From the NCBI GenBank assembly GCA_965365355.1, contig CBDUBJ010000002.1, forward strand, positions 8,178 through 72,177: a DNA stretch of 64,000 nt, read 5' to 3'. The notes under the pieces were generated by a model. That model was not told the DNA's origin. It ran no database searches and saw only the letters and a program-made list of their open reading frames with translations. Every line of letters begins with the position of its first letter. Positions within the stretch are counted from its first letter, which is position 1. Both the position numbers and the translations under genes were made by a program. Origin of the DNA: an uncultured bacterium (GTDB lineage Bacteria; Bacteroidota; Bacteroidia; Flavobacteriales; Flavobacteriaceae). This document shows, piece after piece, positions 8,848-41,030 of this stretch.

Positions 8848-8848
8848 G

Positions 8849-10816: not shown

Positions 10817-10818
10817 AA

Positions 10819-16823: not shown

Positions 16824-17001
16824 TATTTGGGCATTTTTAAGATTTCGTTTTTCCTGGTTCCAAACGTCAGCATTTAGCCGCAGACTTTAACGCTTATATT
16901 TGAATTATAATTTATATTATGTAAAATAGAAAATATGATTGTTGCCCTTGTTTCCTTTATCTATATAAAGTACTTTTACGAACAGCTATTTTTTGTACAT
17001 C

Positions 17002-23751: not shown

Positions 23752-24455
23752 TTGTTAAAGATAATCCATTGATATCGGAACGCCCAACGCCATTTTATCA
23801 AATATTTCGAGATTCCCGCTTTTTGGCAATATTCTAACAAGTCCTGTTTTTTAAAGCCACGCAGAATTGAAACAAGTCCGTCCTCGCGCGACATTTGGTT
23901 CAATGAAAAAATTGCGCAGATGAGTTTGAATAATTTATAGGCAACTTTGCTTCGCTGCAAGTCGTTGATCACAATTCCGACCAATGCCATTTTTTTAAAT
24001 TGCTGCAGCAGCGCCAATATCTGCTCGTCTGAAAAATGGTGAAGTGTAAGCGTGCATAAGATAATGTCGCATTTCTGCGATTCAAATTCCGAAGAAAATA
24101 TGTCCAGAGTTCGAAATGAAATCCTGCTTTGGTCTGATAATTCCTTGGCGTTCTGTATTGTCGCCGGATTGGCATCGATGCCGGTCAATTTAAAATTCAA
24201 ATTATTCCGGAGCGCAAAGTCATCGAGTTCCCGAAGCATATCGCCATTCCCGCATCCGATGTCGATAATCGAAAATTCACGATCAGGTTCATTTGCAATC
24301 AATTTTTTGACTCCGTCGATCGTGATCCGGTTTCCACCCAGAATTCGATTAATTATAGCTATTTTCTGCAGTGCATCAACGAGCATTTCACCGCTTAGGG
24401 TAAAATCATCCATCATTTCGGCTTCGGTCGACCTGAATGTCGTATCGATTTTCAT
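23748..24455 (-). CDS. SAM-dependent methyltransferase
   Basis: IIDIGCGNGD motif I; LTLHHF; INDLQR. Confidence 0.9.
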   Translation of the reverse strand: MKIDTTFRSTEAEMMDDFTLSGEMLVDALQKIAIINRILGGNRITIDGVKKLIANEPDREFSIIDIGCGNGDMLRELDDFALRNNLNFKLTGIDANPATIQNAKELSDQSRISFRTLDIFSSEFESQKCDIILCTLTLHHFSDEQILALLQQFKKMALVGIVINDLQRSKVAYKLFKLICAIFSLNQMSREDGLVSILRGFKKQDLLEYCQKAGISKYLIKWRWAFRYQWIIFNK

Positions 24456-25626: not shown

Positions 25627-27534
25627 TTACACTTTGCCGTCGCGGATTTCGTCGACGATTTCAGGATTAAGCAATGTAGTTGTATCACCAAAATTTGAGA
25701 AATCTCCTTCAGCGATCTTGCGCAGGATCCGGCGCATTATTTTTCCCGATCTTGTTTTTGGCAATGCAGATACGAATTGCATTTTATCAAGTTTTGCGAT
25801 AGGTCCGATTTGTTCGCTGATATGCGAATTGATTTTCGCTCTTATCTGATCCAGATCATGCTCTTGCGCGGCATCCTTTAATATAACAAATCCGTATAGC
25901 GCATTTCCCTTGATATCGTGCGGATAACCGACAACTGCAGCCTCGGCGACATCTTCATGCTCGTCGATCGCATCCTCAATTGGCGCAGTGCCGAGATTGT
26001 GACCCGATACGATCACGACATCATCAACGCGGCCTGTAATTCTGTAAAAACCGTTTTTGTCGCGCAGTGCGCCATCGCCCGTAAAATACTTTCCGGGATA
26101 CGCTGTAAAGTAGGTTTCGATAAAACGCTTGTGATCACCCCAAATGGTGCGCGCGATCGACGGCCATGGATAATTGATGCACAGATTTCCCGCAGATGCT
26201 ACATCGCTGATCTCATTTTTGTTTTCATCTATCAAAGATGGCTGAATTCCGGGTAATGGAAGCGTAGCGTATGTTGGTTTTGTATCAGTGACAAAAGGTA
26301 TTGCAGAAATCATGACTCCGCCGGTTTCGGTCTGCCACCATGTATCGACGATCGGGCATTTTTTCTTTCCGACATTTTCATCATACCAGTGCCATGCTTC
26401 ATCGTTTATGGGTTCGCCGACTGAACCGATTATCTTCAATGAAGACAGATCGTGTTTTAAAACCCATGAAACATCTTCTTTTGCAAGCGAACGAATCGCA
26501 GTCGGCGCCGTATAAAATTGTGTCACCTGATGTTTCTGTATGACTTCCCAAAATCTACCTGAATCGGGAAAAGTTGGAATGCCTTCAAAAATGACGGTCG
26601 TTGCGCCATTTAAAAGCGGGCCATAAACAATATACGAATGTCCAGTGATCCAGCCGATATCGGCCGTACACCAAAACACATCATCTTTTTGATAATTGAA
26701 AATATTCTGAAACGTGTAAGCGGTATAAACCATGTAACCCGCGATTGTATGCATCATGCCTTTCGGCTTTCCCGTCGATCCTGAAGTGTAAAGTATAAAT
26801 AGCGGATCTTCGGCGTTCATTGTCGCAGCATCATTTTTCTCAGAAGCCTTTTCCAGCAGCGGTTCAAGAAAATAATCCCGCCCGTCGACCATCGTAACTG
26901 AATCGTTTGTACGTTGTGCAACCAACACATTTTCGACGGAAGGACAATCATTTAATGCGACGTCGATTATCGGTTTAAGCAATACTTTTTTGGCTCCCCG
27001 ATAAACGCCATCGGCAGTAATTACCATTTTTGATTGGCAATCGTTGATGCGGGTAGCGACGGCATTGGACGAAAAACCTGCGAAAACAACCGAATGCACG
27101 GCGCCGATGCGCGCGCAGGCAAGAACGGAAATTGCGAGTTCCGGGATCATCGGAAGGTATATGCAAACGCGATCTCCTTTTTGAATGCCTTTTTGTAAAA
27201 GGACATTTGCCATTTTACAGACATCACGATGGAGTTCCCGATAAGAAATGTGCCGAGATGATTCGGCAGGATCATTTGGCTCAAAAATTATTGCAGTTGC
27301 GTCCCCTGAGCCTTCAAGATGCCGGTCGAGGCAATTTTCGGTAATGTTTAGCTGCGCGCCATCAAACCATTTAAAAGTCGCGGCATGCATGTCAAACTCA
27401 GAAACACGATCCCATCTTCTTTTCCAAACAAAATTTTCAGATGCGATCCCAGCCCAGAATTCATCGGGACTATCAACAGAAAACCTGTATTGTTCTTCGT
27501 AAGTTTTAAGATCTTTGATATGATAAACTGCCAT
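25627..27534 (-). CDS. acs: Acetyl-CoA synthetase
   Basis: YTSGSTGKPKG, DTWWQTETGG and PKTRSGKIMRR (acetylation Lys). The ATG at 27534 is preferred over 27561. Confidence 0.95.
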   Translation of the reverse strand: MAVYHIKDLKTYEEQYRFSVDSPDEFWAGIASENFVWKRRWDRVSEFDMHAATFKWFDGAQLNITENCLDRHLEGSGDATAIIFEPNDPAESSRHISYRELHRDVCKMANVLLQKGIQKGDRVCIYLPMIPELAISVLACARIGAVHSVVFAGFSSNAVATRINDCQSKMVITADGVYRGAKKVLLKPIIDVALNDCPSVENVLVAQRTNDSVTMVDGRDYFLEPLLEKASEKNDAATMNAEDPLFILYTSGSTGKPKGMMHTIAGYMVYTAYTFQNIFNYQKDDVFWCTADIGWITGHSYIVYGPLLNGATTVIFEGIPTFPDSGRFWEVIQKHQVTQFYTAPTAIRSLAKEDVSWVLKHDLSSLKIIGSVGEPINDEAWHWYDENVGKKKCPIVDTWWQTETGGVMISAIPFVTDTKPTYATLPLPGIQPSLIDENKNEISDVASAGNLCINYPWPSIARTIWGDHKRFIETYFTAYPGKYFTGDGALRDKNGFYRITGRVDDVVIVSGHNLGTAPIEDAIDEHEDVAEAAVVGYPHDIKGNALYGFVILKDAAQEHDLDQIRAKINSHISEQIGPIAKLDKMQFVSALPKTRSGKIMRRILRKIAEGDFSNFGDTTTLLNPEIVDEIRDGKV

Positions 27535-27535
27535 G

Positions 27536-27763
27536 CTATAGTTTATTTTTGTCGTATTCACCTTTTAATGCGTAGAATCCGAACGCGAAAAGTCCGGCAA
27601 CGATGAGCGGCGTCAGCACGAAGAGAATAATGATGCCGAATACAAGATCTTCCTGGTTGCCGGTTTGAAGTTTTGGCAATCCGAAGATGAAGATGCAAAA
27701 GTATGCGGCTGCGGCTGCAAGTGAAATCCACAGGAAACCTAAAAGTCTTTTGATTGTATCCAT
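27536..27763 (-). CDS. Small two-TM membrane protein (DUF6814-like)
   Basis: 75 aa with two hydrophobic helices ending GFYALKGEYD; tightly packed between the MFS gene and acs. Confidence 0.7.
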   Translation of the reverse strand: MDTIKRLLGFLWISLAAAAAYFCIFIFGLPKLQTGNQEDLVFGIIILFVLTPLIVAGLFAFGFYALKGEYDKNKL

Positions 27764-29217
27764 TAGTCGTGGGTTGTATTATTTTTTGTTCCGATATAGA
27801 TCATCCCTATCACAAAGCTTACAGACGCAATGATGATCGGATACCAAAGCCCGTCAAGATAGTAATCCGGTTGATTATTGGTCTTGGCGTTTGTTACGAG
27901 ATATGTCGAAATTGCGGGAAGCAGCCCGCCGAAGATACCATTCCCGACGTGATACGGAAGTGACATCGATGTATATCGAATTTTTAATGGAAACATTTCG
28001 ACCAAAAATGCGGCAATCGGTCCGTAAACCATCGTAACGAAAATTACCTGTACCCAGACAAGGAAAATCAGTATCCATTTGTCGTGGCTGTTAATGAAAA
28101 TTGTTGTTTTTCCAATTGTCGAATCTGATGTAATTTCGGTTTTGGAATAAGTTCCATCATCGTACGATTTTAGTTGATGAGAATCGGAAATGGCTGCATT
28201 CGCGACGATTTCTGTCTTATTTTGAACGTTGACCGTTTGATACATCTTTTCGTAAATGGGACGATAAAGTAAAATGGCCAGCAGCATTCCCGTCATCATG
28301 ATCGTTTTGCGTCCGATCTTATCGCTGAGCCATCCGAACAGGACAAAAAACGGCGTTCCTAACAAAAGTGCGATTCCAAGCAGTTCATCGACTTGTGTTG
28401 AATCGATGTTCATTACGGTTTTCATGAAACTCATTGCATAGAATTGGCCGGTGTACCAAACGACGCCCTGCCCCATTGTTGCGCCGAATAATGCAAGAAG
28501 CACGAATTTCAGATTGTATCTGTTTCCGAAACTTTCCTTCAATGGATTGATGCTGGTTTTGCCTTCCGATTTTGCTTTTGCGAATGCAGGCGATTCGTCC
28601 ATTTTTTTGCGGATCATGTAAGATACAAAAACCATCAGGATAGAAACCCAGAAAGGAACGCGCCAGCCCCATGAGTCGAATTCTTCTGCAGATAAAAAAG
28701 ACTTTGTGGCAAGAATGACCATCAATGAAACAAATAATCCTGCGGTTGCCGTGGTCTGGATCCAGGATGTCCAATAACCTCGCTGTCCTGCCGGTGCGTG
28801 TTCAGCCACATAAGTTGCCGCTCCGCCATATTCCCCGCCTAATGCAAGTCCTTGCAAAAGCCGTAAGATCAGAACCAGAATTGGCGCGAGATACCCTATA
28901 GTTTCAAAATCAGGAACGCAGCCGATCAGGAAAGTGGCGCCGCCCATCAGCAGAAGCGTGACCATAAAGGTATATTTCCGTCCGATCATATCGCCAAGTC
29001 TGCCGAAAAACAAAGCACCAAACGGACGTACAACGAATCCTGCAGCGAATGTAGCAAGCGTAGATAAAAAGGCAGCGGTAGGATTATCAGACGGAAAAAA
29101 TTTCGTCGATATCACAACTGCGAGACTGCCGAAAATGTAAAAGTCGTACCATTCGATCAGCGTGCCCATTGACGAGGCGGAAATGACTTTCCAGATTCCT
29201 TTTGTAGATTTCTGCAT
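27763..29217 (-). CDS. MFS metabolite:H+ symporter (MHS family)
   Basis: GTLIEWYDFYIF, FGRLGDMIGRK, LQGLALGGEYGGA. Confidence 0.9.
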   Translation of the reverse strand: MQKSTKGIWKVISASSMGTLIEWYDFYIFGSLAVVISTKFFPSDNPTAAFLSTLATFAAGFVVRPFGALFFGRLGDMIGRKYTFMVTLLLMGGATFLIGCVPDFETIGYLAPILVLILRLLQGLALGGEYGGAATYVAEHAPAGQRGYWTSWIQTTATAGLFVSLMVILATKSFLSAEEFDSWGWRVPFWVSILMVFVSYMIRKKMDESPAFAKAKSEGKTSINPLKESFGNRYNLKFVLLALFGATMGQGVVWYTGQFYAMSFMKTVMNIDSTQVDELLGIALLLGTPFFVLFGWLSDKIGRKTIMMTGMLLAILLYRPIYEKMYQTVNVQNKTEIVANAAISDSHQLKSYDDGTYSKTEITSDSTIGKTTIFINSHDKWILIFLVWVQVIFVTMVYGPIAAFLVEMFPLKIRYTSMSLPYHVGNGIFGGLLPAISTYLVTNAKTNNQPDYYLDGLWYPIIIASVSFVIGMIYIGTKNNTTHD

Positions 29218-29382: not shown

Positions 29383-29985
29383 ATGAATTTTAACCCCGAT
29401 GATATCGGGCATTCCGAATCTTACAAATTGCTTACCGGCTCGGTAATTCCACGACCGATCGGATGGATTTCCTCGATAGATTCTAAGGGTAATCTGAATC
29501 TTGCACCATTTTCATATTTTAATATTGTCGGTGATGATCCGCCACATGTCATGTTTTCAACTGTACGGACCGGCGGCGGAAACAAGGATACACTGAACAA
29601 TGTGATGGAAACGAAAGAATTTGTCGTGAATATGGTGACCGAAGATGTAGTCGAAAAGATGAATACTACTTCGCAACAGGTTCCACCCGAAATCAATGAA
29701 TTCGAATTGGCAGGATTGACTACAGCTCCGTCCCTATTGGTGAAGCCGCCAAGAGTCCTGGAAAGTAAAATAAATTTTGAATGCAGGCTTGTACATCATT
29801 ACGAACTGGAAGATCATACGAAAGGCGGCGCGGTTATGATGGTGGGACGAATTGTCATGTTTCATATTGACGACGAGATCATATCTGATAATTTCCGCAT
29901 CAATATGAACAAATACCGACCGGTTGCAAGGCTTGCAGGTTCCAATTACACCACGTTAGGCGAAATTTTTTCAATCAAAAGATAA
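29383..29985 (+). CDS. Flavin reductase-like FMN-binding protein
   Basis: VIPRPIGWISS, NLAPFSYFN, KDTLNN and RLAG motifs; ATG at 29383 (the ORF track starts at 29278). Confidence 0.85.
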   Translation: MNFNPDDIGHSESYKLLTGSVIPRPIGWISSIDSKGNLNLAPFSYFNIVGDDPPHVMFSTVRTGGGNKDTLNNVMETKEFVVNMVTEDVVEKMNTTSQQVPPEINEFELAGLTTAPSLLVKPPRVLESKINFECRLVHHYELEDHTKGGAVMMVGRIVMFHIDDEIISDNFRINMNKYRPVARLAGSNYTTLGEIFSIKR

Positions 29986-30042
29986 CATTTAAGCTCGTTC
30001 TCGATACACGCTCCGCGCACTCGAACGCACAAACCAAACATC

Positions 30043-32310
30043 ATGAAAATTACCGTAATTGGCGGCGGCCCCGGAGGCTTATACTTTGCAATTTTACTTA
30101 AAAAAGCCGTTCCGTCATGTTCGATCGACTTATATGAACGCAACAAATCCGACGATGCATTCGGTTTTGGTGTCGTCTTTTCGGATGAAACACTATCGGA
30201 ATTTTTAACGCGCGATCCGCAGTCGTACGAACTGATACGCAGGAGTTTTGCCTACTGGGACGATCTTGATGTCGTTCGAAATGGTGAGCGTGTGCGAATT
30301 ACAGGAAATGGATTTTGCGGCTGTTCACGAAAAACGTTGCTTCAGTTGCTGCAGCAGCGCTGTCGTGAGGAAGGCGTCAACCTTCATTATGAAACTAATG
30401 TGGATGACCTTTCGCAATTCGCGTCCAGTGATGTAATCGTTGCATGCGACGGCATCAACAGTTTTATCAGGGAACAGAAGGCCGCTGATTTTGAAACCAA
30501 TGTTATTTTGCAGCGCAATAAATTCGTGTGGCTCGGATCGACAAAACCATTGGATGCTTTTGCGTACTTCTTTCGTGAAACCGAGTTTGGGACAATTGTC
30601 GCGCACACTTATCAATACGAAGACGGCCGAAGCACTTGGATTTTCGAATGTACTCCCGAAACGTGGGAAAAGGCAGGTTTCGATACTTATAACGAAGAGG
30701 ATACCATTGCAAAGTTGTCGAATTATTTTAAGGATGAATTAGATGGCCATCCACTGATATCAAACAAATCCCACTGGCGTCAGTTTCCTACGATCACAAA
30801 TAGAAATTGGTCTGCGGGAAACGTAGTCCTGCTTGGAGATGCAAAAGCAACAGCCCACTACTCCATCGGTTCAGGGACAAAACTAGCGATGGAATGCGCC
30901 ATTTCACTGGCCGATTCGATTGCGGCAAACCAGCAAAGTATTCCTGAAGCGTTTAAAATGTATGAAAAGTTGCGAAGAAACCGCGTGGAAATGATCCAGC
31001 ATGCTGCGAAAGTTTCATTGGATTGGTTTGAACATATGGACAGGCATATCAAGCATCCATTCATGCAATTTGCTTTCGGAGTTATGACACGTGCCAAAAA
31101 GGTTACTTATGAAAACCTTGCACTTCGCGACCGATCGTTTACCGAAAAAGTTGTCGCTGAGTTTACTGCCATAAATAATTTTGAGAGGGCCATTTCTCCG
31201 GCATTTACGCCGTTTAAGTTTGGTGACCTCGAATTGATAAACCGTATTGCGATGGCGCCGATGATCCACAATATGGCGTGCGAAGGTGTCGTTGGCGATT
31301 GGCATCTGATGCATTACGGAAGCCGCGCCGTCGATGGTTTGGGATTGATTATTACAGAGCCGGTTTCGGTACATGAAAATGGCAAAATCAATGCAGGATG
31401 CGCCCTGATTTCTAATGACGAACAAGTATTGGCGTGGCGACGCATCACGGATTTTGTCAATCGGAACTCAAAATGTAAGATGGCAATCCAGCTCAATCAC
31501 GCAGGCCGAAAGACTCATAATCAATCAGGAAAAATTTCTGCGTCGTCGATAGCATTTGATAAAGATTTGGGTGTTCCGAAGGAAATGACAATTCAGGATA
31601 TGGATGAAATTGTCGGATCATTCATTGCTTCTGCCAAAAATGCTGAAAAAGCCGGTTTCGACATGATCAGCATCGAAATGAGCAGCGGATATTTGTTAGC
31701 CTCATTTTTATCACCGTTATCAAACCAACGCAGCGATGAATTCGGCGGAAGCGTTGAGCATAGAATTAAATTCCCGATGCGGGTTTTTAGTGAAGTCCGC
31801 AAAGCATTTGACGCAAATAAACCCATTTCAATTTCCATTTCCGCATCCGACTGGCATGAAGACGGAATTTCTCGATCAGATGTAATTTTTATCGCTAACG
31901 CATTTAAGAATGCAGGAGTCGATCTTATAAATGTTGTATCGGGTGGAACCATTTCAGATGAAAAAGCCGAATCCGGCCGCATGTATCAGACGCCATTTGC
32001 CGACCTTATCAGAAATACTGTCGATATTCCCGTAATAACCTCAGGGCAGATTCAGGATATCGATCAAATAAACACGATATTACTCAACGGTCGTGCGGAC
32101 ATAGTTGCATTAGGCCGTCCACTGATGCTCGATCCAGGATTTGTACGGAATGCGCAAGCTTATGAAACTTATCAGCCTGATGATATTCCGCGTGCATATC
32201 AAAGCGGAATTTCGCATCTTTATCCTTTAAGATCAGCTGAGAAACGTGAAAAGGATGCGATGAAAAAAGCATTGAAACCTGAAAGCCATTCAAGCCATAA
32301 AAACAAATGA
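30043..32310 (+). CDS. Anthraniloyl-/salicylyl-CoA 5-hydroxylase fused to an OYE-type oxidoreductase domain (AbmA/SdgC family)
   Basis: FAD monooxygenase motifs GGGPGG, ACDG and LLGDA..AHYSIGSGTKLAME; C-terminal OYE barrel (NRIAMAPM, QLNHAGRK, FLSPLSNQRSDEFGGS). Confidence 0.9.
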   Translation: MKITVIGGGPGGLYFAILLKKAVPSCSIDLYERNKSDDAFGFGVVFSDETLSEFLTRDPQSYELIRRSFAYWDDLDVVRNGERVRITGNGFCGCSRKTLLQLLQQRCREEGVNLHYETNVDDLSQFASSDVIVACDGINSFIREQKAADFETNVILQRNKFVWLGSTKPLDAFAYFFRETEFGTIVAHTYQYEDGRSTWIFECTPETWEKAGFDTYNEEDTIAKLSNYFKDELDGHPLISNKSHWRQFPTITNRNWSAGNVVLLGDAKATAHYSIGSGTKLAMECAISLADSIAANQQSIPEAFKMYEKLRRNRVEMIQHAAKVSLDWFEHMDRHIKHPFMQFAFGVMTRAKKVTYENLALRDRSFTEKVVAEFTAINNFERAISPAFTPFKFGDLELINRIAMAPMIHNMACEGVVGDWHLMHYGSRAVDGLGLIITEPVSVHENGKINAGCALISNDEQVLAWRRITDFVNRNSKCKMAIQLNHAGRKTHNQSGKISASSIAFDKDLGVPKEMTIQDMDEIVGSFIASAKNAEKAGFDMISIEMSSGYLLASFLSPLSNQRSDEFGGSVEHRIKFPMRVFSEVRKAFDANKPISISISASDWHEDGISRSDVIFIANAFKNAGVDLINVVSGGTISDEKAESGRMYQTPFADLIRNTVDIPVITSGQIQDIDQINTILLNGRADIVALGRPLMLDPGFVRNAQAYETYQPDDIPRAYQSGISHLYPLRSAEKREKDAMKKALKPESHSSHKNK

Positions 32311-33911
32311 AAATTTACGAAGACAATTTTGCGCATGAAAATCTGCCGTCGAAAGAACTGCAGCCCTATTATCTATTTCTGGAGCAATCGCAGTTTAACT
32401 TTGGAACTGACCTGAATTGCGCTTATCGCCTGCTCGATTATCATATTGAAAACGGTAATGGTGATGCCGTCGCAATACGAACATTTGAAATCACGTGGAC
32501 ATATCGCGAACTGTATGAAAAAAGCAATCAGATCGCGCATGTTCTTGCCGATGATCTGTCGCTAAAACCCGGGAATCGCGTTTTGATACGATCTGCCAAC
32601 AATCCGATGATGGTGGCGTGCTGGTTCGCTGTCATCAAAGCGGGCGGAATAGTCGTGGCGACGATGCCGTTGCTGCGCGAGAAGGAATTATCGACGATGA
32701 TCGAATGTGCCGAAATCTCGATGGCGCTTTGCGATTACAGGCTTGAAGAGGAATTGGCTGCGGTTCATTCGCCGTTTTTAAAACAATATATCACGTTTGA
32801 CGGCATCGGTTCAGGCATTTCAAAGCTTGAGGTTCTGATGCATAACAAATCGACTGAATTTAAAAATTATGATTCTGACGCCGAACAGGTTTGTCTGATC
32901 GGGTTTACATCAGGAACAACAGGTAAACCTAAAATGACCGCGCATTTCCATCGCGATGTTGTTGCGATCTGCGAAGCGTTTCCGCAATATGCGTTGCAGC
33001 CGACGCCGTTGGATATTTTTACGGGAAGTCCACCGCTTGGTTTTACTTTCGGGCTTGGCGGACTTGTCTTGTTTCCGTTGTATTATGGCGCATCGACATT
33101 TCTGATAGAAAAACCATCTCCTGAACTGTTGTTAAAAGCGATAGAACAGTTTAAAATTACCATTTGCTTTACGGCCCCAACTGCCTGGCGAGTCATCACG
33201 GCAAAGGTTGAGAATTTCGATATTTCGTCGCTTCGCAAGTGCGTATCGGCTGGCGAAACGCTTCCCGCTAAAGTGTGGCAGGATTGGTACGATGCAACCG
33301 GTTTAAAGATTATTGATGGAATAGGGTCGACGGAAATGCTTCACATCTTCATTTCGAATAATGAGGATTTTATGAAAAAGGGCTCTACCGGAAAGGCCGT
33401 AACTGGTTATGAAGCCAAGGTCGTCGGAAATGACGGCATCGAAGTTCCCATAAATACGCCCGGCAGGCTTGCAGTTCGCGGGATTACGGGATGTAAATAT
33501 CTTGCTCGTGAAGAAAAGCAGCGCGAATATGTTGAAAATGGCTGGAACATTACCGGAGACATTTATAAGGTGGATGAAGATGGTTACTTCTGTTTTGTGG
33601 CACGTGGCGACGACATGATCATATCATCAGGATATAATATCGGCGCTATCGAGGTTGAAAGTGTGCTCCTGCTCCATCCGGAAGTTTTAGAGTGCGCGGT
33701 TGTCGGATTGCCCGATCATGAACGAGGAATGCTGGTATGCGCAAATATTGTTTTAAAAGATCACTCGAAGGCTTGTGATGAACTTGCGAAAGAAATGCAG
33801 GATTGGTTTAAAGAGAATGCTGCGCCTTATAAATATCCAAGGATGATCAAGTTTTTGGAGAGTTTGCCTAAGACGGAAACGGGGAAAATACAGCGGTTTA
33901 GATTAAAATAA
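32307..33911 (+). CDS. Aromatic acid-CoA ligase (2-aminobenzoate/benzoate-CoA ligase family)
   Basis: FTSGTTGKPK, GIGSTE, NITGD, LPKTETGKIQR; 4-bp overlap with the upstream gene. Confidence 0.9.
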   Translation: MKIYEDNFAHENLPSKELQPYYLFLEQSQFNFGTDLNCAYRLLDYHIENGNGDAVAIRTFEITWTYRELYEKSNQIAHVLADDLSLKPGNRVLIRSANNPMMVACWFAVIKAGGIVVATMPLLREKELSTMIECAEISMALCDYRLEEELAAVHSPFLKQYITFDGIGSGISKLEVLMHNKSTEFKNYDSDAEQVCLIGFTSGTTGKPKMTAHFHRDVVAICEAFPQYALQPTPLDIFTGSPPLGFTFGLGGLVLFPLYYGASTFLIEKPSPELLLKAIEQFKITICFTAPTAWRVITAKVENFDISSLRKCVSAGETLPAKVWQDWYDATGLKIIDGIGSTEMLHIFISNNEDFMKKGSTGKAVTGYEAKVVGNDGIEVPINTPGRLAVRGITGCKYLAREEKQREYVENGWNITGDIYKVDEDGYFCFVARGDDMIISSGYNIGAIEVESVLLLHPEVLECAVVGLPDHERGMLVCANIVLKDHSKACDELAKEMQDWFKENAAPYKYPRMIKFLESLPKTETGKIQRFRLK

Positions 33912-34054
33912 TGAAATATCACATTTACTTTTATTGGCACGAGCAATTGGATTATGCAAAGCCCCGAAAATCGAATAGCAAAAAGCGGTCTGCGGATTTG
34001 GAGATGATCGCTCCAACGTAATCAGATAAACCGAGACGGGAATTTCGTCGCAGC

Positions 34055-34095
34055 CGGAATGACAAACTAAGGCAGGCGGCTTTTATATCATTCCG
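34055..34095. repeat. Degenerate REP-like inverted repeat
   Basis: CGGAATGA (34055-34062) and TCATTCCG (34088-34095) form an 8-bp inverted pair in the 240-bp gap inside the operon. Confidence 0.4.
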
Positions 34096-34152
34096 ATGAA
34101 ATCGAAAGTCGGATTTTCATAAAGAAATTTATTAAGCAAAAGAACTCTATCA

Positions 34153-34584
34153 ATGTTTTCAAAACAAGAAAAAATACGTTTTAAACACGTCGATTACGCG
34201 GGAATTGTCTTTTATCCAAGATTCCTCGAAATGCTCAACGATCTTGTAGAAGATTGGTTTGAAGAAGCGCTCGACAGGCCATTTTCTAAGATTCACGAAA
34301 CGAACGGCATTCCAACAGTTGACTTAAAAGTCAAGTTCAAAAAAGCCGCACGGATCGGCGATATGATCACTAAAACACTTTGGGTTTCCAATCTTGGCGG
34401 CGCATCTGTAACATGTGGATTCAGATTTTCTTCCGGAAATGAAGTCGTACTTGAAGGTGAAGTCACGCTTGTAAATGTTGCGTTGAATAAGGGAAATGGC
34501 AAATTATCCGCGGAACCCTTTGATAACATAACCCGATCTAAAATATTGAAATACAGCGTTGATGATAAAAATCTTCAATCATAA
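34153..34584 (+). CDS. Acyl-CoA thioesterase (4-hydroxybenzoyl-CoA thioesterase type)
   Basis: IRFKHVDYAGIVFYPRF motif with the catalytic-type Asp; hot-dog fold size. Confidence 0.9.
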   Translation: MFSKQEKIRFKHVDYAGIVFYPRFLEMLNDLVEDWFEEALDRPFSKIHETNGIPTVDLKVKFKKAARIGDMITKTLWVSNLGGASVTCGFRFSSGNEVVLEGEVTLVNVALNKGNGKLSAEPFDNITRSKILKYSVDDKNLQS

Positions 34585-34587
34585 TAA

Positions 34588-35283
34588 ATGGCAAATTATT
34601 TAATCGTCGGCGGGTCGTCAGGAATAGGAAAAGCCCTTACCAAGAAGCTTGCGGATGCAGGCAACAAGGTTTTCGCGTCATATTACAGTAATGATCAAAA
34701 TCAGGATGCGGATAACATTACCTATTTCAGGATGAATGTGCTTGATGAGGTTCCGCTTGATTTTTTGCCCGAAACAATTGACGGACTTGCCTATTGCCCG
34801 GGTTCAATAAATTTGCGCCCGTTCGAACGCATAAAACCGACGGATTTTATTGACGATTTCAATTTGCAGGTCGTCGGCGCGATAAAAATGATCCAGGTAG
34901 CATCAGCACGAATGAAACGAAGCGAAGCGGCATCAATCGTCCTTTTTTCGACGGTCGCCGTACAAACCGGATTGCCGTTTCACACGCAGGTATCAACTTC
35001 GAAAGGCGCACTTGAAGGATTGACGAAAGCGCTCGCTGCGGAATATGCACCAAAGATCCGTGTGAATTGCATCGCTCCTTCATTGACCGACACGCCTTTG
35101 GCTTCAAATCTTCTTAACAGCGATCAGAAAAAAGAAGCCAACGCCCTGCGACATCCGATGAAAAGGATTGGCAGCGTTGACGACATTGCTTCGGCCGCAG
35201 AATTTTTATTATCATCGAAATCAAGCTGGATAACGGGACAGATTTTACACGTCGATGGCGGTATATCGTCGCTTCGGGTTTGA
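34588..35283 (+). CDS. Atypical SDR oxidoreductase
   Basis: GGSSGIG, NCIAPSLTDT and ITGQILHVDGG; the YxxxK position reads VSTSK. Confidence 0.85.
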   Translation: MANYLIVGGSSGIGKALTKKLADAGNKVFASYYSNDQNQDADNITYFRMNVLDEVPLDFLPETIDGLAYCPGSINLRPFERIKPTDFIDDFNLQVVGAIKMIQVASARMKRSEAASIVLFSTVAVQTGLPFHTQVSTSKGALEGLTKALAAEYAPKIRVNCIAPSLTDTPLASNLLNSDQKKEANALRHPMKRIGSVDDIASAAEFLLSSKSSWITGQILHVDGGISSLRV

Positions 35284-35332
35284 AATCTTTGTCCGTACAA
35301 ATTAAAACGAATCGATTTCATTAAATTTACGC

Positions 35333-36322
35333 ATGGAATTTTCCCATTTTAAAGCTGCAGCCGTACAAACTTCACCGATTTTTCTAAATGTCGAAAAGAC
35401 GATCGATAAAGCAATTTCGATCATAAAAGAAGCGGCGGGTAATGGCGCACAGCTCATTGCATTTCCGGAAGTGTTTATTTCCGGATATCCGTATTGGAAC
35501 TGGATCATGACGCCGGTTCAGGGCAGCAAATGGTACGAGCAATTGTACCGCAATTCGGTTTCGGCGGACAGTCCTGAAATTGAAAGGATTTGCGAGGCCG
35601 CGAAAAAAAATGACATCCATGTGGTCATCGGAATGAACGAACGCGGTTCGAGTTATGGCGAAATTTACAACACGAACCTGATCATCGATAACATAGGAAA
35701 GATCGTCGGAAAGCACAGGAAATTGGTTCCGACATGGGCAGAGAAACTAACATGGACATCAGGCGACGGATCGTCTTTAAAAGTATATAACACGGAAGTT
35801 GGTCCGATCGGAACGCTGGCATGCGGCGAAAACACCAACACTTTGGCGCGCTTTACATTGTTGTCGCAGGGTGAGCTGATCCACATCGCAAATTACATTT
35901 CGCTTCCGGTCGCGCCTCCTGACTATAATATGGCCGAAGCAATAAAGATCCGCGCTGCAGCACATTCATTCGAAGGAAAACTGTTCACAATCGTTTCGTG
36001 TTCGACCATATCGAAAGAGATCATGGACATCATGAAAGAAGATGTTCCAAATGCAGAAGAATTGCTCACGCGGACGAATTCCGCTTTTTCAGGCTTTATC
36101 GGTCCGAATGGCGCTGTAATCGGCGATCCCTTAATCGACGATGAAGGAATAGTGTATGCCGATATAGATCTTTCCAAGTGCATCCAGCCAAAACAAATGC
36201 ACGATATATTGGGGCATTATAACCGGTTTGACATTTTTGATCTTAGAGTCAATACAGCTCCAACAAAGAAGATCACATTCGTTAATAGCAATGAGGAATT
36301 TTTCAAAAGGGAAATCCGTTAA
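35333..36322 (+). CDS. Nitrilase-superfamily carbon-nitrogen hydrolase
   Basis: Glu-Lys-Cys triad: FPE, HRKLVPT, LACGENTN; DILGHYNRFDIF tail. Confidence 0.9.
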   Translation: MEFSHFKAAAVQTSPIFLNVEKTIDKAISIIKEAAGNGAQLIAFPEVFISGYPYWNWIMTPVQGSKWYEQLYRNSVSADSPEIERICEAAKKNDIHVVIGMNERGSSYGEIYNTNLIIDNIGKIVGKHRKLVPTWAEKLTWTSGDGSSLKVYNTEVGPIGTLACGENTNTLARFTLLSQGELIHIANYISLPVAPPDYNMAEAIKIRAAAHSFEGKLFTIVSCSTISKEIMDIMKEDVPNAEELLTRTNSAFSGFIGPNGAVIGDPLIDDEGIVYADIDLSKCIQPKQMHDILGHYNRFDIFDLRVNTAPTKKITFVNSNEEFFKREIR

Positions 36323-36351
36323 ATTTTTATTCTAAACTCATAATCAATATC

Positions 36352-37452
36352 ATGGACGGAAAATACAGCGATGACGTCATTGGCCGGGCCCGAGTTCAGG
36401 ATACGCCCGAACTGGAGGCTTATTACAACGAGCTTTCAGAACTTGGCGCAGGTGCGCTCTGGACTGTTGCAAATGACATTGAGCCGTGGGAACCGCGTGC
36501 TTCATCAGTTCCGATGCTTTGGCGGTATGACGATTTGCGGGATTTGGTTTTGAGATCTTCGGAACTCGTAACACCGGAAAAAGCAGGACGACGTGTGGTT
36601 TATCTGGTAAATGATAAGCGTCGCGACGTAAGTGCTGCAGTTGGCTGGCTTTACACCGGAATTCAGGTCACGCGGCCCGGCGAAAGCACTTCTGCTCACA
36701 GGCATAAGGCATCGGCATTGCGATTTATCATGGAAGGCGAAGGAGGCTATACGGTTGTCGATGGGAATAAGATCACGTTTGAAGTCAACGATTTTGTTAT
36801 TACCCCTAATTCAACATGGCATGAGCACGGCGTTGTCGAAGGCGGTAAAACATGCATTTGGCAGGACGGTCTCGACATTCCGCTGGTTAATGCGCTTGAA
36901 GCCAATGATTATGCGGTTTTTGATGGAAAACAGCCTTTGGAAAAGCCGGTAAACTATTCACCTATGACATTTTCCGGTGCAGGCTTGCGTCCGACATATG
37001 AAAATTGGGACAAGCCATATTCACCGCTGTTTAAATATGAATGGAAGAATGTATATCCTGCACTTCAGGCTGCGGCGGCCGCGGGCGAAGGCTCGCCGTA
37101 CGATGGAATCATCATGCATTATACAAATCCGAAAGATGGCGGTCATGTGATGCAAACACTCGGCGCATCGATGCAGATGCTTTTGCCCGGACAACATACA
37201 AAAGCGCATAGACATACCGGATCATTTGTTTTTCAATGTGCCAAAGGCCGTGGTTATACGGTGGTCAACGGAAAGCGTTTCGATTGGAAAGAACGCGATA
37301 TTTTCTGCATTCCGTCATGGATGTGGCATGAACATGTGAATTTGAGCGATAGTGAAGATGCATGTTTGTTTTCGTTCCACGATTTGCCGGTGATTGAAAA
37401 ACTGGGTCTGTATCAGGAAAAGGCATATGACCAAAACAATGGCTATCAATAG
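36352..37452 (+). CDS. Gentisate 1,2-dioxygenase-like bicupin
   Basis: AHRHKASALRF and WHEH in the N-terminal cupin; AHRHTGS and WHEH in the C-terminal cupin; WQDGLDIPL. Confidence 0.9.
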   Translation: MDGKYSDDVIGRARVQDTPELEAYYNELSELGAGALWTVANDIEPWEPRASSVPMLWRYDDLRDLVLRSSELVTPEKAGRRVVYLVNDKRRDVSAAVGWLYTGIQVTRPGESTSAHRHKASALRFIMEGEGGYTVVDGNKITFEVNDFVITPNSTWHEHGVVEGGKTCIWQDGLDIPLVNALEANDYAVFDGKQPLEKPVNYSPMTFSGAGLRPTYENWDKPYSPLFKYEWKNVYPALQAAAAAGEGSPYDGIIMHYTNPKDGGHVMQTLGASMQMLLPGQHTKAHRHTGSFVFQCAKGRGYTVVNGKRFDWKERDIFCIPSWMWHEHVNLSDSEDACLFSFHDLPVIEKLGLYQEKAYDQNNGYQ

Positions 37453-37474
37453 ACAAAAGCTGATCCAACCATAC

Positions 37475-37557
37475 AGCCTGGTCCTGATCCCGATAGCTAT
37501 CGGGAGCGGCAGTTCACAGGAACGCAACGCGGGCCGAGGACTACAGCGGATAGCAGG
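37475..37557 (+). ncRNA. Flavo-1-like structured RNA/repeat, copy A (carries an 18-bp palindrome insert)
   Basis: CCTG..GGGAGCGGCA..TACAGCGGATAG-CAGG, with the perfect palindrome TCCCGATAGCTATCGGGA at 37488-37505; shares core motifs with the copies at 56.2 and 59.9 kb. Confidence 0.5.
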
Positions 37558-37602
37558 TTCCCGGTATCTGGAAAATAATATATCAAAAATATAAAATAGC
37601 AA

Positions 37603-38520
37603 ATGAAACTCGTTACATACAGTTACAACGATTCGATCCAGAGGATTGGCGTCATGCAAAACGACTCGATCATAGATATAAGCCAACTTGGAGCAATTGT
37701 CGGGAAAGATTTTCCGGTTACGATGCTCGACCTGATTGATTTCGGATTTCCGATGGTAGAGAAAATTTCGAAGGCAATTTCGGACCATGCATCAGACCTT
37801 GCCGGAATTTCGCATCCGGTTGAAAAGGTTAAGCTGCTCGCCCCTATTCCGCGGCCGCGAAAAAATATCATTGGAATCGGCCTTAATTATACGGAACATG
37901 TTGCCGAGAGCGCCAGAACGCTGGATACATCTAACGAGCTCCCGCAGCAACCCGTTATTTTCTCGAAACCTCCTACGGCTGTAATCGGTACGAATGAAGA
38001 TATCCTGCACAACCGCAAACTGACAAAGCAGCTTGATTGGGAAGTTGAACTGGCGGTGATCATTGGCAAAAAAGGAAAGTATGTCAAAAAAGAAGATGCG
38101 CTTGATTATGTGTTTGGATATACGGTCATCAATGACATCAGTGCACGCGACTGCCGCCGTGCAGGGCAATGGATCGTTTCAAAAGGCCAGGATACTTTTG
38201 CGCCTATGGGCCCGTGCATTGTAACAAAAGATGAAATTCCCGATCCGCATAATCTCAATCTGTGGCTTACACTGAACGGAATCGAAAAACAGCGCTCAAA
38301 CACGAAGTTCATGTTGTTCAACATCAATGACCTGATTGAAGATCTAAGCACTGTTTTTACAATTGAAGCCGGCGATATCATTGCAACGGGAACGCCTTCG
38401 GGAGTTGGCGCAGGCCGAAATCCGCAGGAATGGATGTGGGACGGCGACCTCGTGGAGGCTACGGTTGAAGGAATTGGGACGATTGTGAATACGGTGAAGG
38501 AATTGAGAGTTGAGAGTTGA
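37603..38520 (+). CDS. Fumarylacetoacetate hydrolase family protein (maleyl-/fumarylpyruvate hydrolase-like)
   Basis: GIGLNYTEH, IFSKPP, LDWEVEL, NDISARD, KGQDTF, GDIIATGTPSGVG. Confidence 0.9.
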   Translation: MKLVTYSYNDSIQRIGVMQNDSIIDISQLGAIVGKDFPVTMLDLIDFGFPMVEKISKAISDHASDLAGISHPVEKVKLLAPIPRPRKNIIGIGLNYTEHVAESARTLDTSNELPQQPVIFSKPPTAVIGTNEDILHNRKLTKQLDWEVELAVIIGKKGKYVKKEDALDYVFGYTVINDISARDCRRAGQWIVSKGQDTFAPMGPCIVTKDEIPDPHNLNLWLTLNGIEKQRSNTKFMLFNINDLIEDLSTVFTIEAGDIIATGTPSGVGAGRNPQEWMWDGDLVEATVEGIGTIVNTVKELRVES

Positions 38521-38555
38521 CAGTTTACAGTTTATAGTTGACAGTTTACAGTTTG
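38500..38555 (+). repeat. Tandem heptamer repeat (8 units, consensus nAGTTkA)
   Basis: gaattga gagttga gagttga cagttta cagttta tagttga cagttta cagtttg, spanning the FAH stop codon. Confidence 0.8.
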
Positions 38556-38573
38556 TAAATAAAAAGAAACATT

Positions 38574-39326
38574 TTGAAAAATACATACAGAATTGGCCAG
38601 ATTGTACCATCATCCAACGTGACGATGGAAACCGAGATCCCTGCGATATTCCGCGCGCGCGAATCGATTTTGCCCGAAAGATTTACTTTCCATTCGAGCC
38701 GGATGCGCATGAAGAAAGTCACAAAAGAAGAGCTCGAAGCAATGGATGCTATGAGTTTAAAATGTGCCCAGGAACTTTCAGACGCTCATGTCGACGTCAT
38801 GGGATACGCCTGTCTTGTCGCGATCATGAGCATGGGCCGCGGATACCATTGTGTTTCCGAAACAAACCTGCACCGCGAAACTACCGATAATGGATTTCCA
38901 ACCCTAATTGTTACCAGTGCCGGAGCTTTGGTTACAGGTTTAAAAGCCCTTGGAGCCAAAAAGGTCGCGTTGATCACGCCGTATATGAGGCCTTTGACAG
39001 ATCTGGTCGTTGATTATATCGAACATCAGGGATTTGAAGTCAAAGGTTCGATTGCGCTCGAGATTGCCGACAACCTGGAGGTTGCCGCCCAAGATCCGAT
39101 GAATTTATTGGAGATCTATAAGCGGCTTGATCTTACAGATGTCGATGTGCTGGTTGCCTCGTGCTGCGTCCAGATGCCATCTTTGCCTGCTATAGATCTG
39201 ATTGAGAAAGAGCTTGGCATTCCGGTAACCTCGGCAGCGGTTTGCACTACTTACGAAATGATGAAGAAATTGGGAATCGTAACAAAAGCTCCGATTGGAG
39301 GCAGTTTGCTCAATGGAAAATACTGA
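38574..39326 (+). CDS. maiA: Maleate cis-trans isomerase (Asp/Glu racemase superfamily)
   Basis: IGQIVPSSNVTMETE, catalytic Cys in YACLVAIM and SCCVQMPS; TTG start. Confidence 0.85.
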   Translation: MKNTYRIGQIVPSSNVTMETEIPAIFRARESILPERFTFHSSRMRMKKVTKEELEAMDAMSLKCAQELSDAHVDVMGYACLVAIMSMGRGYHCVSETNLHRETTDNGFPTLIVTSAGALVTGLKALGAKKVALITPYMRPLTDLVVDYIEHQGFEVKGSIALEIADNLEVAAQDPMNLLEIYKRLDLTDVDVLVASCCVQMPSLPAIDLIEKELGIPVTSAAVCTTYEMMKKLGIVTKAPIGGSLLNGKY

Positions 39327-39592: not shown

Positions 39593-39686
39593 GGATGCTG
39601 GCGGCTCGCAACGCACATTGGATTTTTTTTTAATTTTACGTTGATTGCAGGATTACTCTACCTGCCCGATGCATAAAATAATTTCA

Positions 39687-40562
39687 ATGTCATTGCAACT
39701 TACCCAGATCGAACGCGTTAAAACAATCACTAAGGAAGAGTTTTACAATAATTACGTGAAAAAGCAAAAGCCTGTCGTTATCGAAAGACTGACGCAGGAT
39801 TGGCCCGCTTTCCATAAATGGAATTTGGATTATATCAGTCAGATTGCCGGAAGTAAGACTGTGCCGCTTTACGATGACCGACCGGTTTCTCACAAAGACG
39901 GTTTTAACGAGGCTCATGCTAAGATGAAAATGTCTGATTACATCGAGCTTCTTAAACGCGAACCAACCAATTACAGGATATTTCTATATAACCTGATGAA
40001 GGAAGTGCCGTCGTTAAAGAGTGATTTTATATGGCCGGATATCGGACTCAGCTTGGTTAAGCAATTGCCAATGTTATTTTTCGGCGGTTCGAATTCCAAA
40101 GTATTCATGCATTTCGATATTGATTATTCTAATATTTTGCATTTCCATTTTCACGGCGAAAAGCAGTGCATTCTATTCCCGCCCGATCAAACAAAATATT
40201 TATATAAGGTTCCTCATGCATTGATCTCTAGAGAGGATATCGATTTTGATAATCCTGATTTTGAGAAATGGCCGGCACTTAAACATGCAAGCGGATGGAA
40301 AACAAATCTCAAGCATGGCGAAATGCTTTATATGCCGGAAGGATATTGGCACTATATGAAATATCTTACGCCGGGATTTTCGATGAGTCTCCGTGCTTTG
40401 CCGAAAACGATGTCAAACATTTCAAAAGCGGTGTACAATGTTTTCGTTATGAGGCATTTCGACAACTGGATGCGGAAAAGAAAAGGCCAGAAATGGATCG
40501 ATTATAAAAACAGGCGTGCGATCGAAAATACGCATAAGGCATTAGGACTTCCAACCAACTAA
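39687..40562 (+). CDS. JmjC/cupin-8 2OG-Fe(II) oxygenase
   Basis: KPVVIE, LFFGG, H-x-D in MHFDID, G(E)MLYMPEGYWH. Confidence 0.85.
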   Translation: MSLQLTQIERVKTITKEEFYNNYVKKQKPVVIERLTQDWPAFHKWNLDYISQIAGSKTVPLYDDRPVSHKDGFNEAHAKMKMSDYIELLKREPTNYRIFLYNLMKEVPSLKSDFIWPDIGLSLVKQLPMLFFGGSNSKVFMHFDIDYSNILHFHFHGEKQCILFPPDQTKYLYKVPHALISREDIDFDNPDFEKWPALKHASGWKTNLKHGEMLYMPEGYWHYMKYLTPGFSMSLRALPKTMSNISKAVYNVFVMRHFDNWMRKRKGQKWIDYKNRRAIENTHKALGLPTN

Positions 40563-41010: not shown

Positions 41011-41030
41011 GAGGCGAAAGCCTCTTTTTT
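41011..41030 (+). terminator. Rho-independent terminator
   Basis: GAGGC-GAAA-GCCTC followed by a T6 run. Confidence 0.8.

Follow-up and report, generated by a model that had tools for sequence, protein, structure and literature searches.

A conserved Flavobacteriaceae operon as a candidate aerobic anthranilate pathway combining CoA-dependent hydroxylation with gentisate-like ring cleavage

What does a nitrilase homologue do in an operon otherwise resembling a pathway for the cleavage of an aromatic ring? This question is raised by a DNA stretch of 64,000 nucleotides (hereafter the window) from an uncultured member of the Flavobacteriaceae (GenBank assembly GCA_965365355.1, contig CBDUBJ010000002.1, positions 8,178 to 72,177), in which nine plus-strand open reading frames (ORFs) lie head to tail between positions 29278 and 39326. 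An earlier note, made from the letters alone, had read them as a route from anthranilate through 5-hydroxyanthranilate, maleamate and maleate to fumarate. Pfam and NCBIfam profile searches of the window ORFs confirmed each of the nine gene families that it had named (cf. Table 1), while all specific NCBIfam equivalog cutoffs were missed by the operon proteins. We propose with moderate confidence that the operon encodes an aerobic anthranilate pathway, a hybrid of coenzyme A (CoA)-dependent hydroxylation and gentisate-like ring fission. The overall route of the earlier note is thus retained, on the strength of gene neighbours, ligase, sequence motifs and isomerase, whereas its reading of the hydrolase as an amidase is not.

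According to this proposal, the ligase would form anthraniloyl-CoA, and the two-domain flavoprotein would hydroxylate it at C5; since the ene-reductase half of the latter appears to be disabled, it would release aromatic 5-hydroxyanthraniloyl-CoA and not the reduced ring made by the Azoarcus enzyme. The hotdog thioesterase would then yield 5-hydroxyanthranilate, an easily oxidised p-aminophenol that the flavin-reductase-like protein would probably keep reduced. The bicupin dioxygenase would cleave the C1-C2 bond while C2 keeps its nitrogen, the FAH-family enzyme would hydrolyse the acylpyruvate to pyruvate and a nitrogen-bearing C4 acid, the nitrilase-family enzyme would release NH3 and maleate from the C4 (or C7) ring-fission fragment, and maleate isomerase would produce fumarate. 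The nitrogen function would be either an amide (maleamoylpyruvate, then maleamate) or a nitrile (3-cyanoacryloylpyruvate, then (Z)-3-cyanoacrylate).

The operon was compared with 80 Flavobacterium or related genome loci encoding a relative of the hydroxylase. Eight core genes, namely flavin reductase, hydroxylase, ligase, thioesterase, nitrilase, dioxygenase, FAH and isomerase, occurred in this identical order and on the same strand in 59 of these loci, nearly all the others ending at contig ends, and the arrangement is far from chance. The three most conserved proteins were the isomerase, the nitrilase and the dioxygenase (median identities within Flavobacterium of 86, 82 and 80%, respectively); the flavin-reductase-like gene was found in 79 loci and the thioesterase gene in 73. 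No orthologue of the SDR was detected in the 80 loci, and the Cupin_8/JmjC-like gene downstream of the operon was present in three of them. Hence, the SDR is a lineage-specific insertion for which a role in the core pathway is unlikely, and the Cupin_8 gene is a lineage-specific addition whose membership of the system is doubtful. The flavin reductase and the SDR had earlier been left unassigned together; the former now emerges as a conserved part of the system, the latter as a passenger specific to the lineage. Within the operon, the ligase start overlaps the hydroxylase stop by 4 nucleotides. The flavin-reductase ORF opens at 29278, and its 35 codons upstream of the ATG at 29383 have no counterpart in homologues; since the alignments begin at this ATG, it is likely the true start. 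The G+C content of the window is about 43%, and its closest relatives are Flavobacterium genomes and metagenome-assembled genomes, the best hydroxylase match sharing 74% identity. Further insertions were seen among the 80 loci. In 29 of them (e.g., L040, 14052-15635), ligase and thioesterase are separated by the gene of an FMN protein of about 527 residues that is membrane-anchored, belongs to the Glu_synthase family (PF01645) and is not present in the window. Other loci have acquired genes for an AHSA1/SRPBCC protein (14 loci), a secreted alpha/beta hydrolase (11 loci) or an amino-acid permease (three loci).

The lower part of the operon recurs in other phyla, namely in Alpha- and Betaproteobacteria and in an actinomycete. 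Plasmids and megaplasmids were searched by tblastn for the dioxygenase and the nitrilase, and seven clusters from outside Flavobacterium (L081-L086 and L088) were inspected directly. Adjacent dioxygenase and nitrilase genes, with products 58-68% identical to those of the window, were found in Ruegeria pomeroyi, Sagittula, Sulfitobacter, Leisingera, Shinella, Burkholderia sp. SFA1 and Caballeronia, as well as in a Ralstonia solanacearum strain and the actinomycete Embleya. FAH and isomerase genes flank this pair in all seven inspected clusters, while the genes upstream of the module differ between taxonomic groups. The nitrilase is 59-67% identical to the copies of Proteobacteria and Embleya, which always lie next to the dioxygenase, and the corresponding values for proteobacterial cluster genes are 58-61% for the FAH and 64-68% for the isomerase. 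Of the 19 dioxygenases of this clade that are plasmid-borne, 17 have a branch-1 nitrilase nearby, which belongs to the same clade as that of the window in 11 cases and is NIT4-like in six (three of them inspected directly). The NIT4-like type characterizes variant clusters of Aminobacter, Tistrella and Novosphingobium (L096, 11039-12603; L097, 16047-17651; L087, 10271-11862), which possess the same dioxygenase and FAH, have no isomerase, and carry the nitrilase gene directly beside the flavin-reductase-like gene. The Sulfitobacter alexandrii cluster contains RidA and the flavin-reductase-like gene and has no nitrilase, and in Burkholderiaceae the two-domain hydroxylase is part of the module cluster, with the gene order dioxygenase-FAH-nitrilase-isomerase. 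More distant nitrilase homologues (at most 52% identity; Polaromonas, Salinigranum, Rhizobium) lie in unrelated contexts and were uninformative on function.

The neighbours of the module bear on its substrate. In Embleya, it directly follows genes for tryptophan 2,3-dioxygenase, an amidohydrolase, kynureninase and an AraC regulator, and in Proteobacteria it adjoins a pair similar to indolepyruvate:ferredoxin oxidoreductase (IorA/IorB-like), a thioesterase and MarR regulators. An isatin hydrolase gene, annotated as "cyclase family", is intact in four of six clusters (Burkholderia, Caballeronia, Shinella and Sagittula) and a remnant in Ralstonia; these genes match crystallised isatin hydrolases at 1e-137 (5NMP) and 1e-100 (5NNA). 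The IorAB/isatin-hydrolase neighbourhoods lie at 3664-7903 in L081 and at 5371-9548 and 17294-18073 in L082, and also occur in L083, L084, L085 and L088. The roseobacter hydroxylase is encoded in a separate abm-type cluster, which in Sagittula comprises SDR, MarR, enoyl-CoA hydratase, acyl-CoA dehydrogenase, ligase, tryptophan dioxygenase, kynureninase, thioesterase and RidA, and in Ruegeria most of this set, including tryptophan dioxygenase, without kynureninase and thioesterase. In the abm-type clusters of Ruegeria and Sagittula (L089, L090) and Ralstonia (L098), RidA stands beside the ligase, as does a thioesterase except in Ruegeria. Anthranilate (2-aminobenzoate) arises in the catabolism of tryptophan/kynurenine and in that of indole/isatin: the product of kynureninase is anthranilate and that of isatin hydrolase is isatinate (2-aminophenylglyoxylate). 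Taken with the identity of the ligase to abm-type ligases, the kynureninase, tryptophan dioxygenase and isatin hydrolase neighbours point to a 2-aminoaryl acid, i.e., anthranilate, as the substrate, in line with the earlier note. The IorAB-like 2-oxoacid oxidoreductase would in this case convert isatinate to anthraniloyl-CoA, making it a candidate for a missing step of indole or auxin catabolism.

The ligase in question was 50.6% identical to those of the Ruegeria and Sagittula abm-type clusters and 52-54% identical to others, with 52% for a Ralstonia gene annotated as 2-aminobenzoate-CoA ligase, and it scored 324 bits with the NCBIfam benzoate-CoA ligase family, below the cutoff of 375. We propose it to be an anthranilate-CoA ligase. 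The hydroxylase shows the AbmA-type fusion of an FAD hydroxylase (FAD_binding_3, residues 111-317) with an OYE-like half (Oxidored_FMN, residues 388-705), and its score with the NCBIfam model "bifunctional salicylyl-CoA 5-hydroxylase/oxidoreductase" (NF006101) was 865 bits, the cutoff being 1078. Overall identity gave no substrate assignment, since the protein is equidistant (41-43%) from abm-type homologues and from the proteobacterial homologues linked to the dioxygenase. In the OYE half, all three abm-type hydroxylases (Ralstonia, Ruegeria and Sagittula) contain the motif H-(A/C)-A-H-G-Y, whereas its first histidine is replaced by glutamine in the dioxygenase-linked hydroxylases of Ralstonia, Burkholderia, Caballeronia, Cupriavidus and Novosphingobium and in about 115 of 120 Flavobacterium proteins, most of which read Q-A-H-H-G-F. 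In the dioxygenase-linked group, the proton-donor tyrosine is frequently Phe, Asn or Ser, and the second OYE element, SPMAQY, is likewise altered. The window hydroxylase, with E-M-S-S-G-Y, lacks a functional YqjM-type ene-reductase site (an H-x-x-H pair plus Tyr). This split tracks the pathway context and not taxonomy, as Ralstonia possesses proteins of either type, and it speaks for an inactive reductase half in all cases in which the hydroxylase is followed by a thioesterase and a ring-cleaving dioxygenase.

In the Azoarcus-type enzyme, hydroxylation of 2-aminobenzoyl-CoA at C5 precedes reduction of the ring in the OYE half, and under NADH limitation this enzyme yields 5-hydroxyanthraniloyl-CoA (PMC3534580). 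With the ene-reductase site degenerate in the dioxygenase-linked copies and intact in the abm-type ones, an aromatic 5-hydroxy product is therefore to be expected from the window hydroxylase. The earlier note had predicted that the hydroxylated product stays aromatic, and the loss of the motif in every dioxygenase-linked hydroxylase examined supports it. The same note had reported the beta-oxidation genes of the abm pathway as missing, and tblastn with abm-type cluster queries indeed gave no match for enoyl-CoA hydratase, acyl-CoA dehydrogenase, 3-hydroxyacyl-CoA dehydrogenase or RidA in the 64-kb window. The thioesterase, proposed here to act on 5-hydroxyanthraniloyl-CoA, is 36-40% identical to those of the Burkholderia, Ralstonia and Sagittula clusters, the best match (40%) being the thioesterase of the Sagittula abm-type cluster.

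The bicupin dioxygenase is 62% identical (549 bits) to GDOsp (PDB 3BU7) and 37-42% identical to gtdA-type enzymes. It reached 295 bits with the gentisate 1,2-dioxygenase model TIGR02272 (cutoff 442) and 276 bits with that of the 5-aminosalicylate dioxygenase MabB (cutoff 650). In its N-terminal cupin, an HRH...HEH motif aligns with H119, H121 and H160 of salicylate dioxygenase (SDO; 2PHD/4FAG), so that the three-histidine iron site is kept, and a second HxH...HEH motif in the C-terminal cupin (window positions 37190-37350), which 77 of the 78 sequences of the clade share, agrees with the second iron site described in GDOsp. We propose that the enzyme is a 5-hydroxyanthranilate 1,2-dioxygenase of the GDOsp clade, for which gentisate may also be a substrate; the gene context argues for a nitrogen-containing one.

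At the end of the route, the isomerase matched the maleate isomerase of Pseudomonas putida S16 (4FQ7) at 2.2e-95 with about 65% identity, and 2XEC at 3.3e-63, and contains both catalytic cysteine motifs, GYACLVA and (C)CVQMPS. On account of this match and of both motifs, maleate, already an intermediate in the earlier note, is almost certainly one in the pathway, which would require the FAH-family enzyme to hydrolyse the cis-acylpyruvate directly. That note had also reported a thiol-dependent maleylpyruvate isomerase as absent, and none of the GST or mycothiol type lies inside the cluster, to which, and not to the whole window, this statement applies. The best PDB matches of the FAH were 8SKY (1.7e-62) and the maleylpyruvate hydrolase 6JVV (1.7e-31), and its best NCBIfam model, scored below cutoff, was 2,4-didehydro-3-deoxy-L-rhamnonate hydrolase; it thus has diketo-acid hydrolases as relatives and maleylpyruvate hydrolase as a more distant one. 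It is proposed to be an acylpyruvate hydrolase releasing pyruvate, an activity that sequence alone does not distinguish from that of an isomerase or decarboxylase.

There remains the nitrogen. Maleamate had been suggested earlier as the substrate of an amidase-type hydrolase, and it is here that a revision is needed. The best PDB matches of the hydrolase are true nitrilases and cyanide dihydratases (6ZBY at 4.5e-67, 8UXU and 3WUY; range 4.5e-67 to 4.8e-43), whereas formamidase, Nit2, carbamoylases and aliphatic amidase were matched only at 1e-7 to 4e-6. Alignment with 6ZBY, 8UXU and 3WUY showed the Glu-Lys-Cys triad and the second Glu in the elements PE..., hrKl.PT..E and laCgE. The active-site motif LACGENTN, found in 119 of 120 Flavobacterium orthologues and in three proteobacterial ones, deviates from the canonical C-W-E-(H/N), and the score with the Nit6803 model was 236 bits (cutoff 502). 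The NIT4-like enzyme that substitutes for it in the variant clusters is about 31-35% identical to the window protein, matches plant NIT4 (PDB 6I00) at 5.5e-105 and keeps CWEN. No isochorismatase-family (NicF/Ami-type) domain is encoded in the cluster, its sole C-N hydrolase being the PF00795 protein. Branch 1 is the only branch of the nitrilase superfamily known to hydrolyse nitriles, branches 2-9 holding amidases (PMC7815647), and by these comparisons the hydrolase is a branch-1 (true) nitrilase homologue.

The recruitment of two independent true-nitrilase lineages, and never of a NicF-type or signature amidase, suggests that a nitrile may fit the role of substrate at least as well as maleamate, and we regard amide and nitrile as about equally likely. 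For the second case, we tentatively suggest, as a possible though doubtful course, that the GDOsp-clade dioxygenase cleaves 5-hydroxyanthranilate between C1 and C2 into a nitrile, from which the true nitrilase ultimately yields maleate and NH3. With NH on C2, the seven-membered lactone intermediate would become a cyclic imidate, which could either be hydrolysed to the amide or undergo elimination to the nitrile; elimination would give R-C≡N and an enolate, with the second oxygen atom leaving as water. The FAH would then produce pyruvate and (Z)-3-cyanoacrylate, and the nitrilase would convert the latter to maleate and NH3. NIT4 acts on beta-cyanoalanine, a carboxy-nitrile of similar size to (Z)-3-cyanoacrylate, and the oxidation of o-phenylenediamine to cis,cis-mucononitrile by copper and O2 provides a chemical precedent. 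If true, biology would have its first example of an aromatic ring cleavage that forms a nitrile, i.e., a new enzyme chemistry, and two orphan nitrilase lineages (the LACGENTN and the bacterial NIT4-like clades) would gain a physiological substrate.

Several points weigh against the anthranilate pathway in the form proposed. We know of no branch-1 nitrilase that acts physiologically on an amide, nor of a ring-cleaving dioxygenase that forms a nitrile. The clusters of roseobacters, Shinella and Embleya have no hydroxylase in cis, and no gene for tryptophan dioxygenase, kynureninase or isatin hydrolase was found within 10 kb of the Flavobacterium clusters. Finally, the dioxygenase keeps L38, R83, Q108, A125, R127, H162, W172, D174 and L176 (SDO numbering) and thereby every residue listed as conserved among all gentisate dioxygenases (L38, Q108, A125, R127, H162, W172, D174 and L176; PMC11264262). 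The title of the publication on its orthologue GDOsp, as cited in the same paper, names a gentisate 1,2-dioxygenase, and the kinetic study related to it used the Corynebacterium enzyme, not GDOsp.

These last features would also fit a removal of nitrogen before ring cleavage, which we consider unlikely but worth setting out. The flavin-reductase-like protein and the nitrilase, with RidA in some variants, would then turn 5-hydroxyanthranilate, or its quinone imine, into gentisate: the flavoprotein would oxidise the aminophenol to the quinone imine, the imine would be hydrolysed and the quinone re-reduced in a redox-neutral cycle, after which a true gentisate 1,2-dioxygenase would act, followed by a maleylpyruvate hydrolase and by maleate isomerase. 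Besides the gentisate-dioxygenase signature and the name of 3BU7, this is favoured by Cain 1968 who, in the form in which that work is cited, derives gentisate from anthranilate via 5-hydroxyanthranilate, a point likewise adverse to our proposal. It also agrees with the adjacency of nitrilase and flavin-reductase-like genes in the variant clusters and with RidA accompanying the latter gene, without nitrilase, in Sulfitobacter alexandrii. The flavin-reductase-like protein itself, whose best PDB matches were 3BPK and then the 2-nitrobenzoate nitroreductase 4Z85 (7.6e-33), resembles in the latter an enzyme acting on a 2-N-substituted benzoate; it is 39-57% identical to cluster genes of Burkholderia, Ralstonia, Aminobacter, Tistrella, Novosphingobium and Sulfitobacter alexandrii. 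However, no member of the nitrilase superfamily is known to hydrolyse imines or aryl C-N bonds, and two separate true-nitrilase lineages would both have had to acquire this activity. Furthermore, the Ruegeria, Sagittula, Shinella, Caballeronia and Embleya clusters carry the nitrilase without the flavin-reductase-like gene, and the Burkholderiaceae gene order fits hydrolysis after cleavage. Under the anthranilate pathway with cleavage first, we propose that this protein carries out the NAD(P)H-dependent reduction of the quinone-imine form of 5-hydroxyanthranilate.

A conventional CoA-dependent pathway in which salicylate or 3-hydroxybenzoate is turned into gentisate, as in Streptomyces (sdg), Rhizobium (ceh) or Bacillus halodurans (BH1999), appears improbable to us. 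It would end with direct maleylpyruvate hydrolysis and maleate isomerase, the nitrilase being peripheral (feeding in an aromatic nitrile) or unrelated. Ligase, hydroxylase, thioesterase, dioxygenase, FAH and isomerase would indeed make up a chemically complete route without the nitrilase, the dioxygenase is gentisate-dioxygenase-like, and both the best NCBIfam model and the public annotations of the hydroxylase name salicylyl-CoA 5-hydroxylase. Nevertheless, hydroxylase and dioxygenase fall below the cutoffs of the curated models, and the nitrilase, the second most conserved protein of the operon, would be left without a role although its gene is fixed beside the dioxygenase across four phyla while upstream genes vary. 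Moreover, the ligase is closest to abm-type ligases, and the linked genes (tryptophan dioxygenase, kynureninase, isatin hydrolase) include none related to salicylate. As for 3-aminobenzoate, which after CoA activation and para-hydroxylation would give 5-aminosalicylate for MabB-like cleavage and deamination of the enamine to maleylpyruvate, the similar scores with the MabB and gentisate models (276 and 295 bits) are outweighed by the distance of the former from its 650-bit cutoff, by RidA-type enzymes being more plausible enamine deaminases than a nitrilase, and by the same linked genes and abm-type ligase, which indicate a 2-amino substrate, and we rejected this highly improbable reading on gene context.

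Table 1. Genes of the proposed anthranilate operon and the genes on either side of it (window coordinates).
Feature	Position	Strand	Family assignment and remarks
MFS metabolite/H+ symporter	27763..29217	-	Pfam Sugar_tr/MFS_1; NCBIfam 366 bits vs 443 cutoff
Flavin-reductase-like protein	29383..29985	+	Flavin_Reduct PF01613, 2.3e-26
Two-domain flavoprotein hydroxylase, 755 aa	30043..32310	+	FAD_binding_3 + Oxidored_FMN
Aryl-CoA ligase	32307..33911	+	AMP-binding + AMP-binding_C; benzoate-CoA ligase family
Hotdog thioesterase	34153..34584	+	4HBT_2
SDR oxidoreductase	34588..35283	+	adh_short_C2
Nitrilase homologue	35333..36322	+	CN_hydrolase PF00795
Bicupin dioxygenase	36352..37452	+	gentisate-dioxygenase-like; two Cupin_2 stretches
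FAH-family hydrolase	37603..38520	+	FAA_hydrolase PF01557, 2.9e-71
Maleate cis-trans isomerase	38574..39326	+	Asp/Glu-racemase type
Cupin_8/JmjC-like protein	39645..40562	+	PF13621, 1.7e-34

The symporter gene divergent from the operon, present upstream in 34 of the 80 related loci, possibly encodes an uptake protein, its link to the system being weak. An acetyl-CoA synthetase gene (25627-27561, minus strand) lies upstream of the operon in 35 of these loci; it was rejected as a pathway member, being a bona fide AcsA (937 bits, above cutoff), and its linkage probably reflects a conserved neighbourhood and not a shared function. A terminator-like hairpin occurs at 41011-41024, 3' of the Cupin_8 gene; the promoter and terminator scan stayed at chance level, and the sigma-70 consensus used does not apply to Bacteroidota. 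Further upstream, a minus-strand run at 19489-25570 encodes a type III polyketide synthase, a ketoacyl synthase, a FabA-like dehydratase, an SDR, an S-adenosylmethionine-dependent methyltransferase, an FAD monooxygenase/halogenase-like protein and a phosphopantetheinyl transferase, and looks like an alkylresorcinol or flexirubin-type lipid/pigment cluster; its methyltransferase and FAD genes recur upstream in about 15 related loci. The plus-strand genes at 4862-14715 (a PelF-like DUF3492 glycosyltransferase, two large proteins without Pfam match and a 1298-residue DUF2194 protein) are possibly a Pel-like exopolysaccharide locus. The window also encodes a putative signalling enzyme with cNMP-binding, CBS and DUF294 nucleotidyltransferase domains (16993-18915, plus) and a 970-residue fusion of a GH3 glycoside hydrolase with a beta-lactamase-family domain (60095-63007, minus).

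Literature searches revealed no account of this pathway or of maleamoylpyruvate, nor any link between a nitrilase and ring cleavage of the gentisate type, and papers on the transcriptome and fitness of Ruegeria pomeroyi refer to SPOA0115 and SPOA0111 only in passing. The enzyme families are all known, and the novelty is their combination. The natural substrates of branch-1 nitrilases are, to our knowledge, mostly unknown, and the module would give these enzymes a defined catabolic role. What becomes of anthraniloyl-CoA once it is hydroxylated is a recognised gap in knowledge: a curation effort of 2022 left out tryptophan degradation via anthraniloyl-CoA monooxygenase for lack of knowledge. The module is a candidate for the entire conversion of anthranilate into fumarate, pyruvate and ammonia. 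It appears to be a core feature of Flavobacterium, and it occurs also in roseobacters, in Burkholderiaceae, including Ralstonia solanacearum strains, and in actinomycetes. It further suggests how isatin or isatinate from indole or auxin breakdown might enter central metabolism, with the IorAB-like enzyme making anthraniloyl-CoA, and it would lead to a reinterpretation of the structurally solved "gentisate dioxygenase" GDOsp.

Among known systems, the CoA-dependent conversions of salicylate to gentisate (sdgABCD of Streptomyces sp. WA46, cehGHI of Rhizobium sp. X9 and the gentisyl-CoA thioesterase BH1999 of Bacillus halodurans) follow the same logic of ligase, FAD/OYE hydroxylase acting on the CoA ester, hotdog thioesterase and bicupin 1,2-dioxygenase. 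The present operon differs from them by the branch-1 nitrilase and maleate isomerase fixed in the module, by the tryptophan/isatin context, by the grouping of its ligase with the anthranilate type, and by a hydroxylase and a dioxygenase scoring below the cutoffs. The abm pathway of Azoarcus evansii employs a 2-aminobenzoate-CoA ligase and a 2-aminobenzoyl-CoA monooxygenase/reductase, followed by beta-oxidation-like steps. With its homologues in Ruegeria, Sagittula and Ralstonia, the operon shares the ligase (50-54% identity) and the architecture of the hydroxylase (41-43%); however, these clusters carry beta-oxidation-type genes, whereas enoyl-CoA hydratase, acyl-CoA dehydrogenase and RidA are missing from the window, the OYE His-His-Tyr is degenerate, and a thioesterase and a dioxygenase follow. 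The maleamate branch in the degradation of nicotinate/nicotine and 2,5-dihydroxypyridine (P. putida KT2440 and S16), with the maleate isomerase NicE/Iso, likewise converts a derivative of a C4 cis-dicarboxylate to NH3 and maleate and then to fumarate. Its maleamate amidohydrolase, NicF/Ami, is isochorismatase-like, whereas here a branch-1 nitrilase homologue would release the nitrogen and a gentisate-type bicupin would open a carbocyclic ring. The gentisate pathway with direct maleylpyruvate hydrolysis (HbzF of Pseudomonas alcaligenes; maleylpyruvate hydrolase structure 6JVV) similarly relies on an FAH-family enzyme that forms pyruvate and a cis-C4 acid without a thiol-dependent isomerase, but the FAH of the window is only distantly related to 6JVV, and it is paired here with a nitrilase and a maleate isomerase. 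The closest comparison is GDOsp itself (gene SPOA0115 of Silicibacter (Ruegeria) pomeroyi), an orthologue of the window dioxygenase with the same two HxH...H metal motifs that has been investigated solely for its action on gentisate. It is encoded next to a nitrilase, an FAH and a maleate isomerase, beside IorAB and a thioesterase, and this neighbourhood suggests that its physiological substrate may be other than, or additional to, gentisate.

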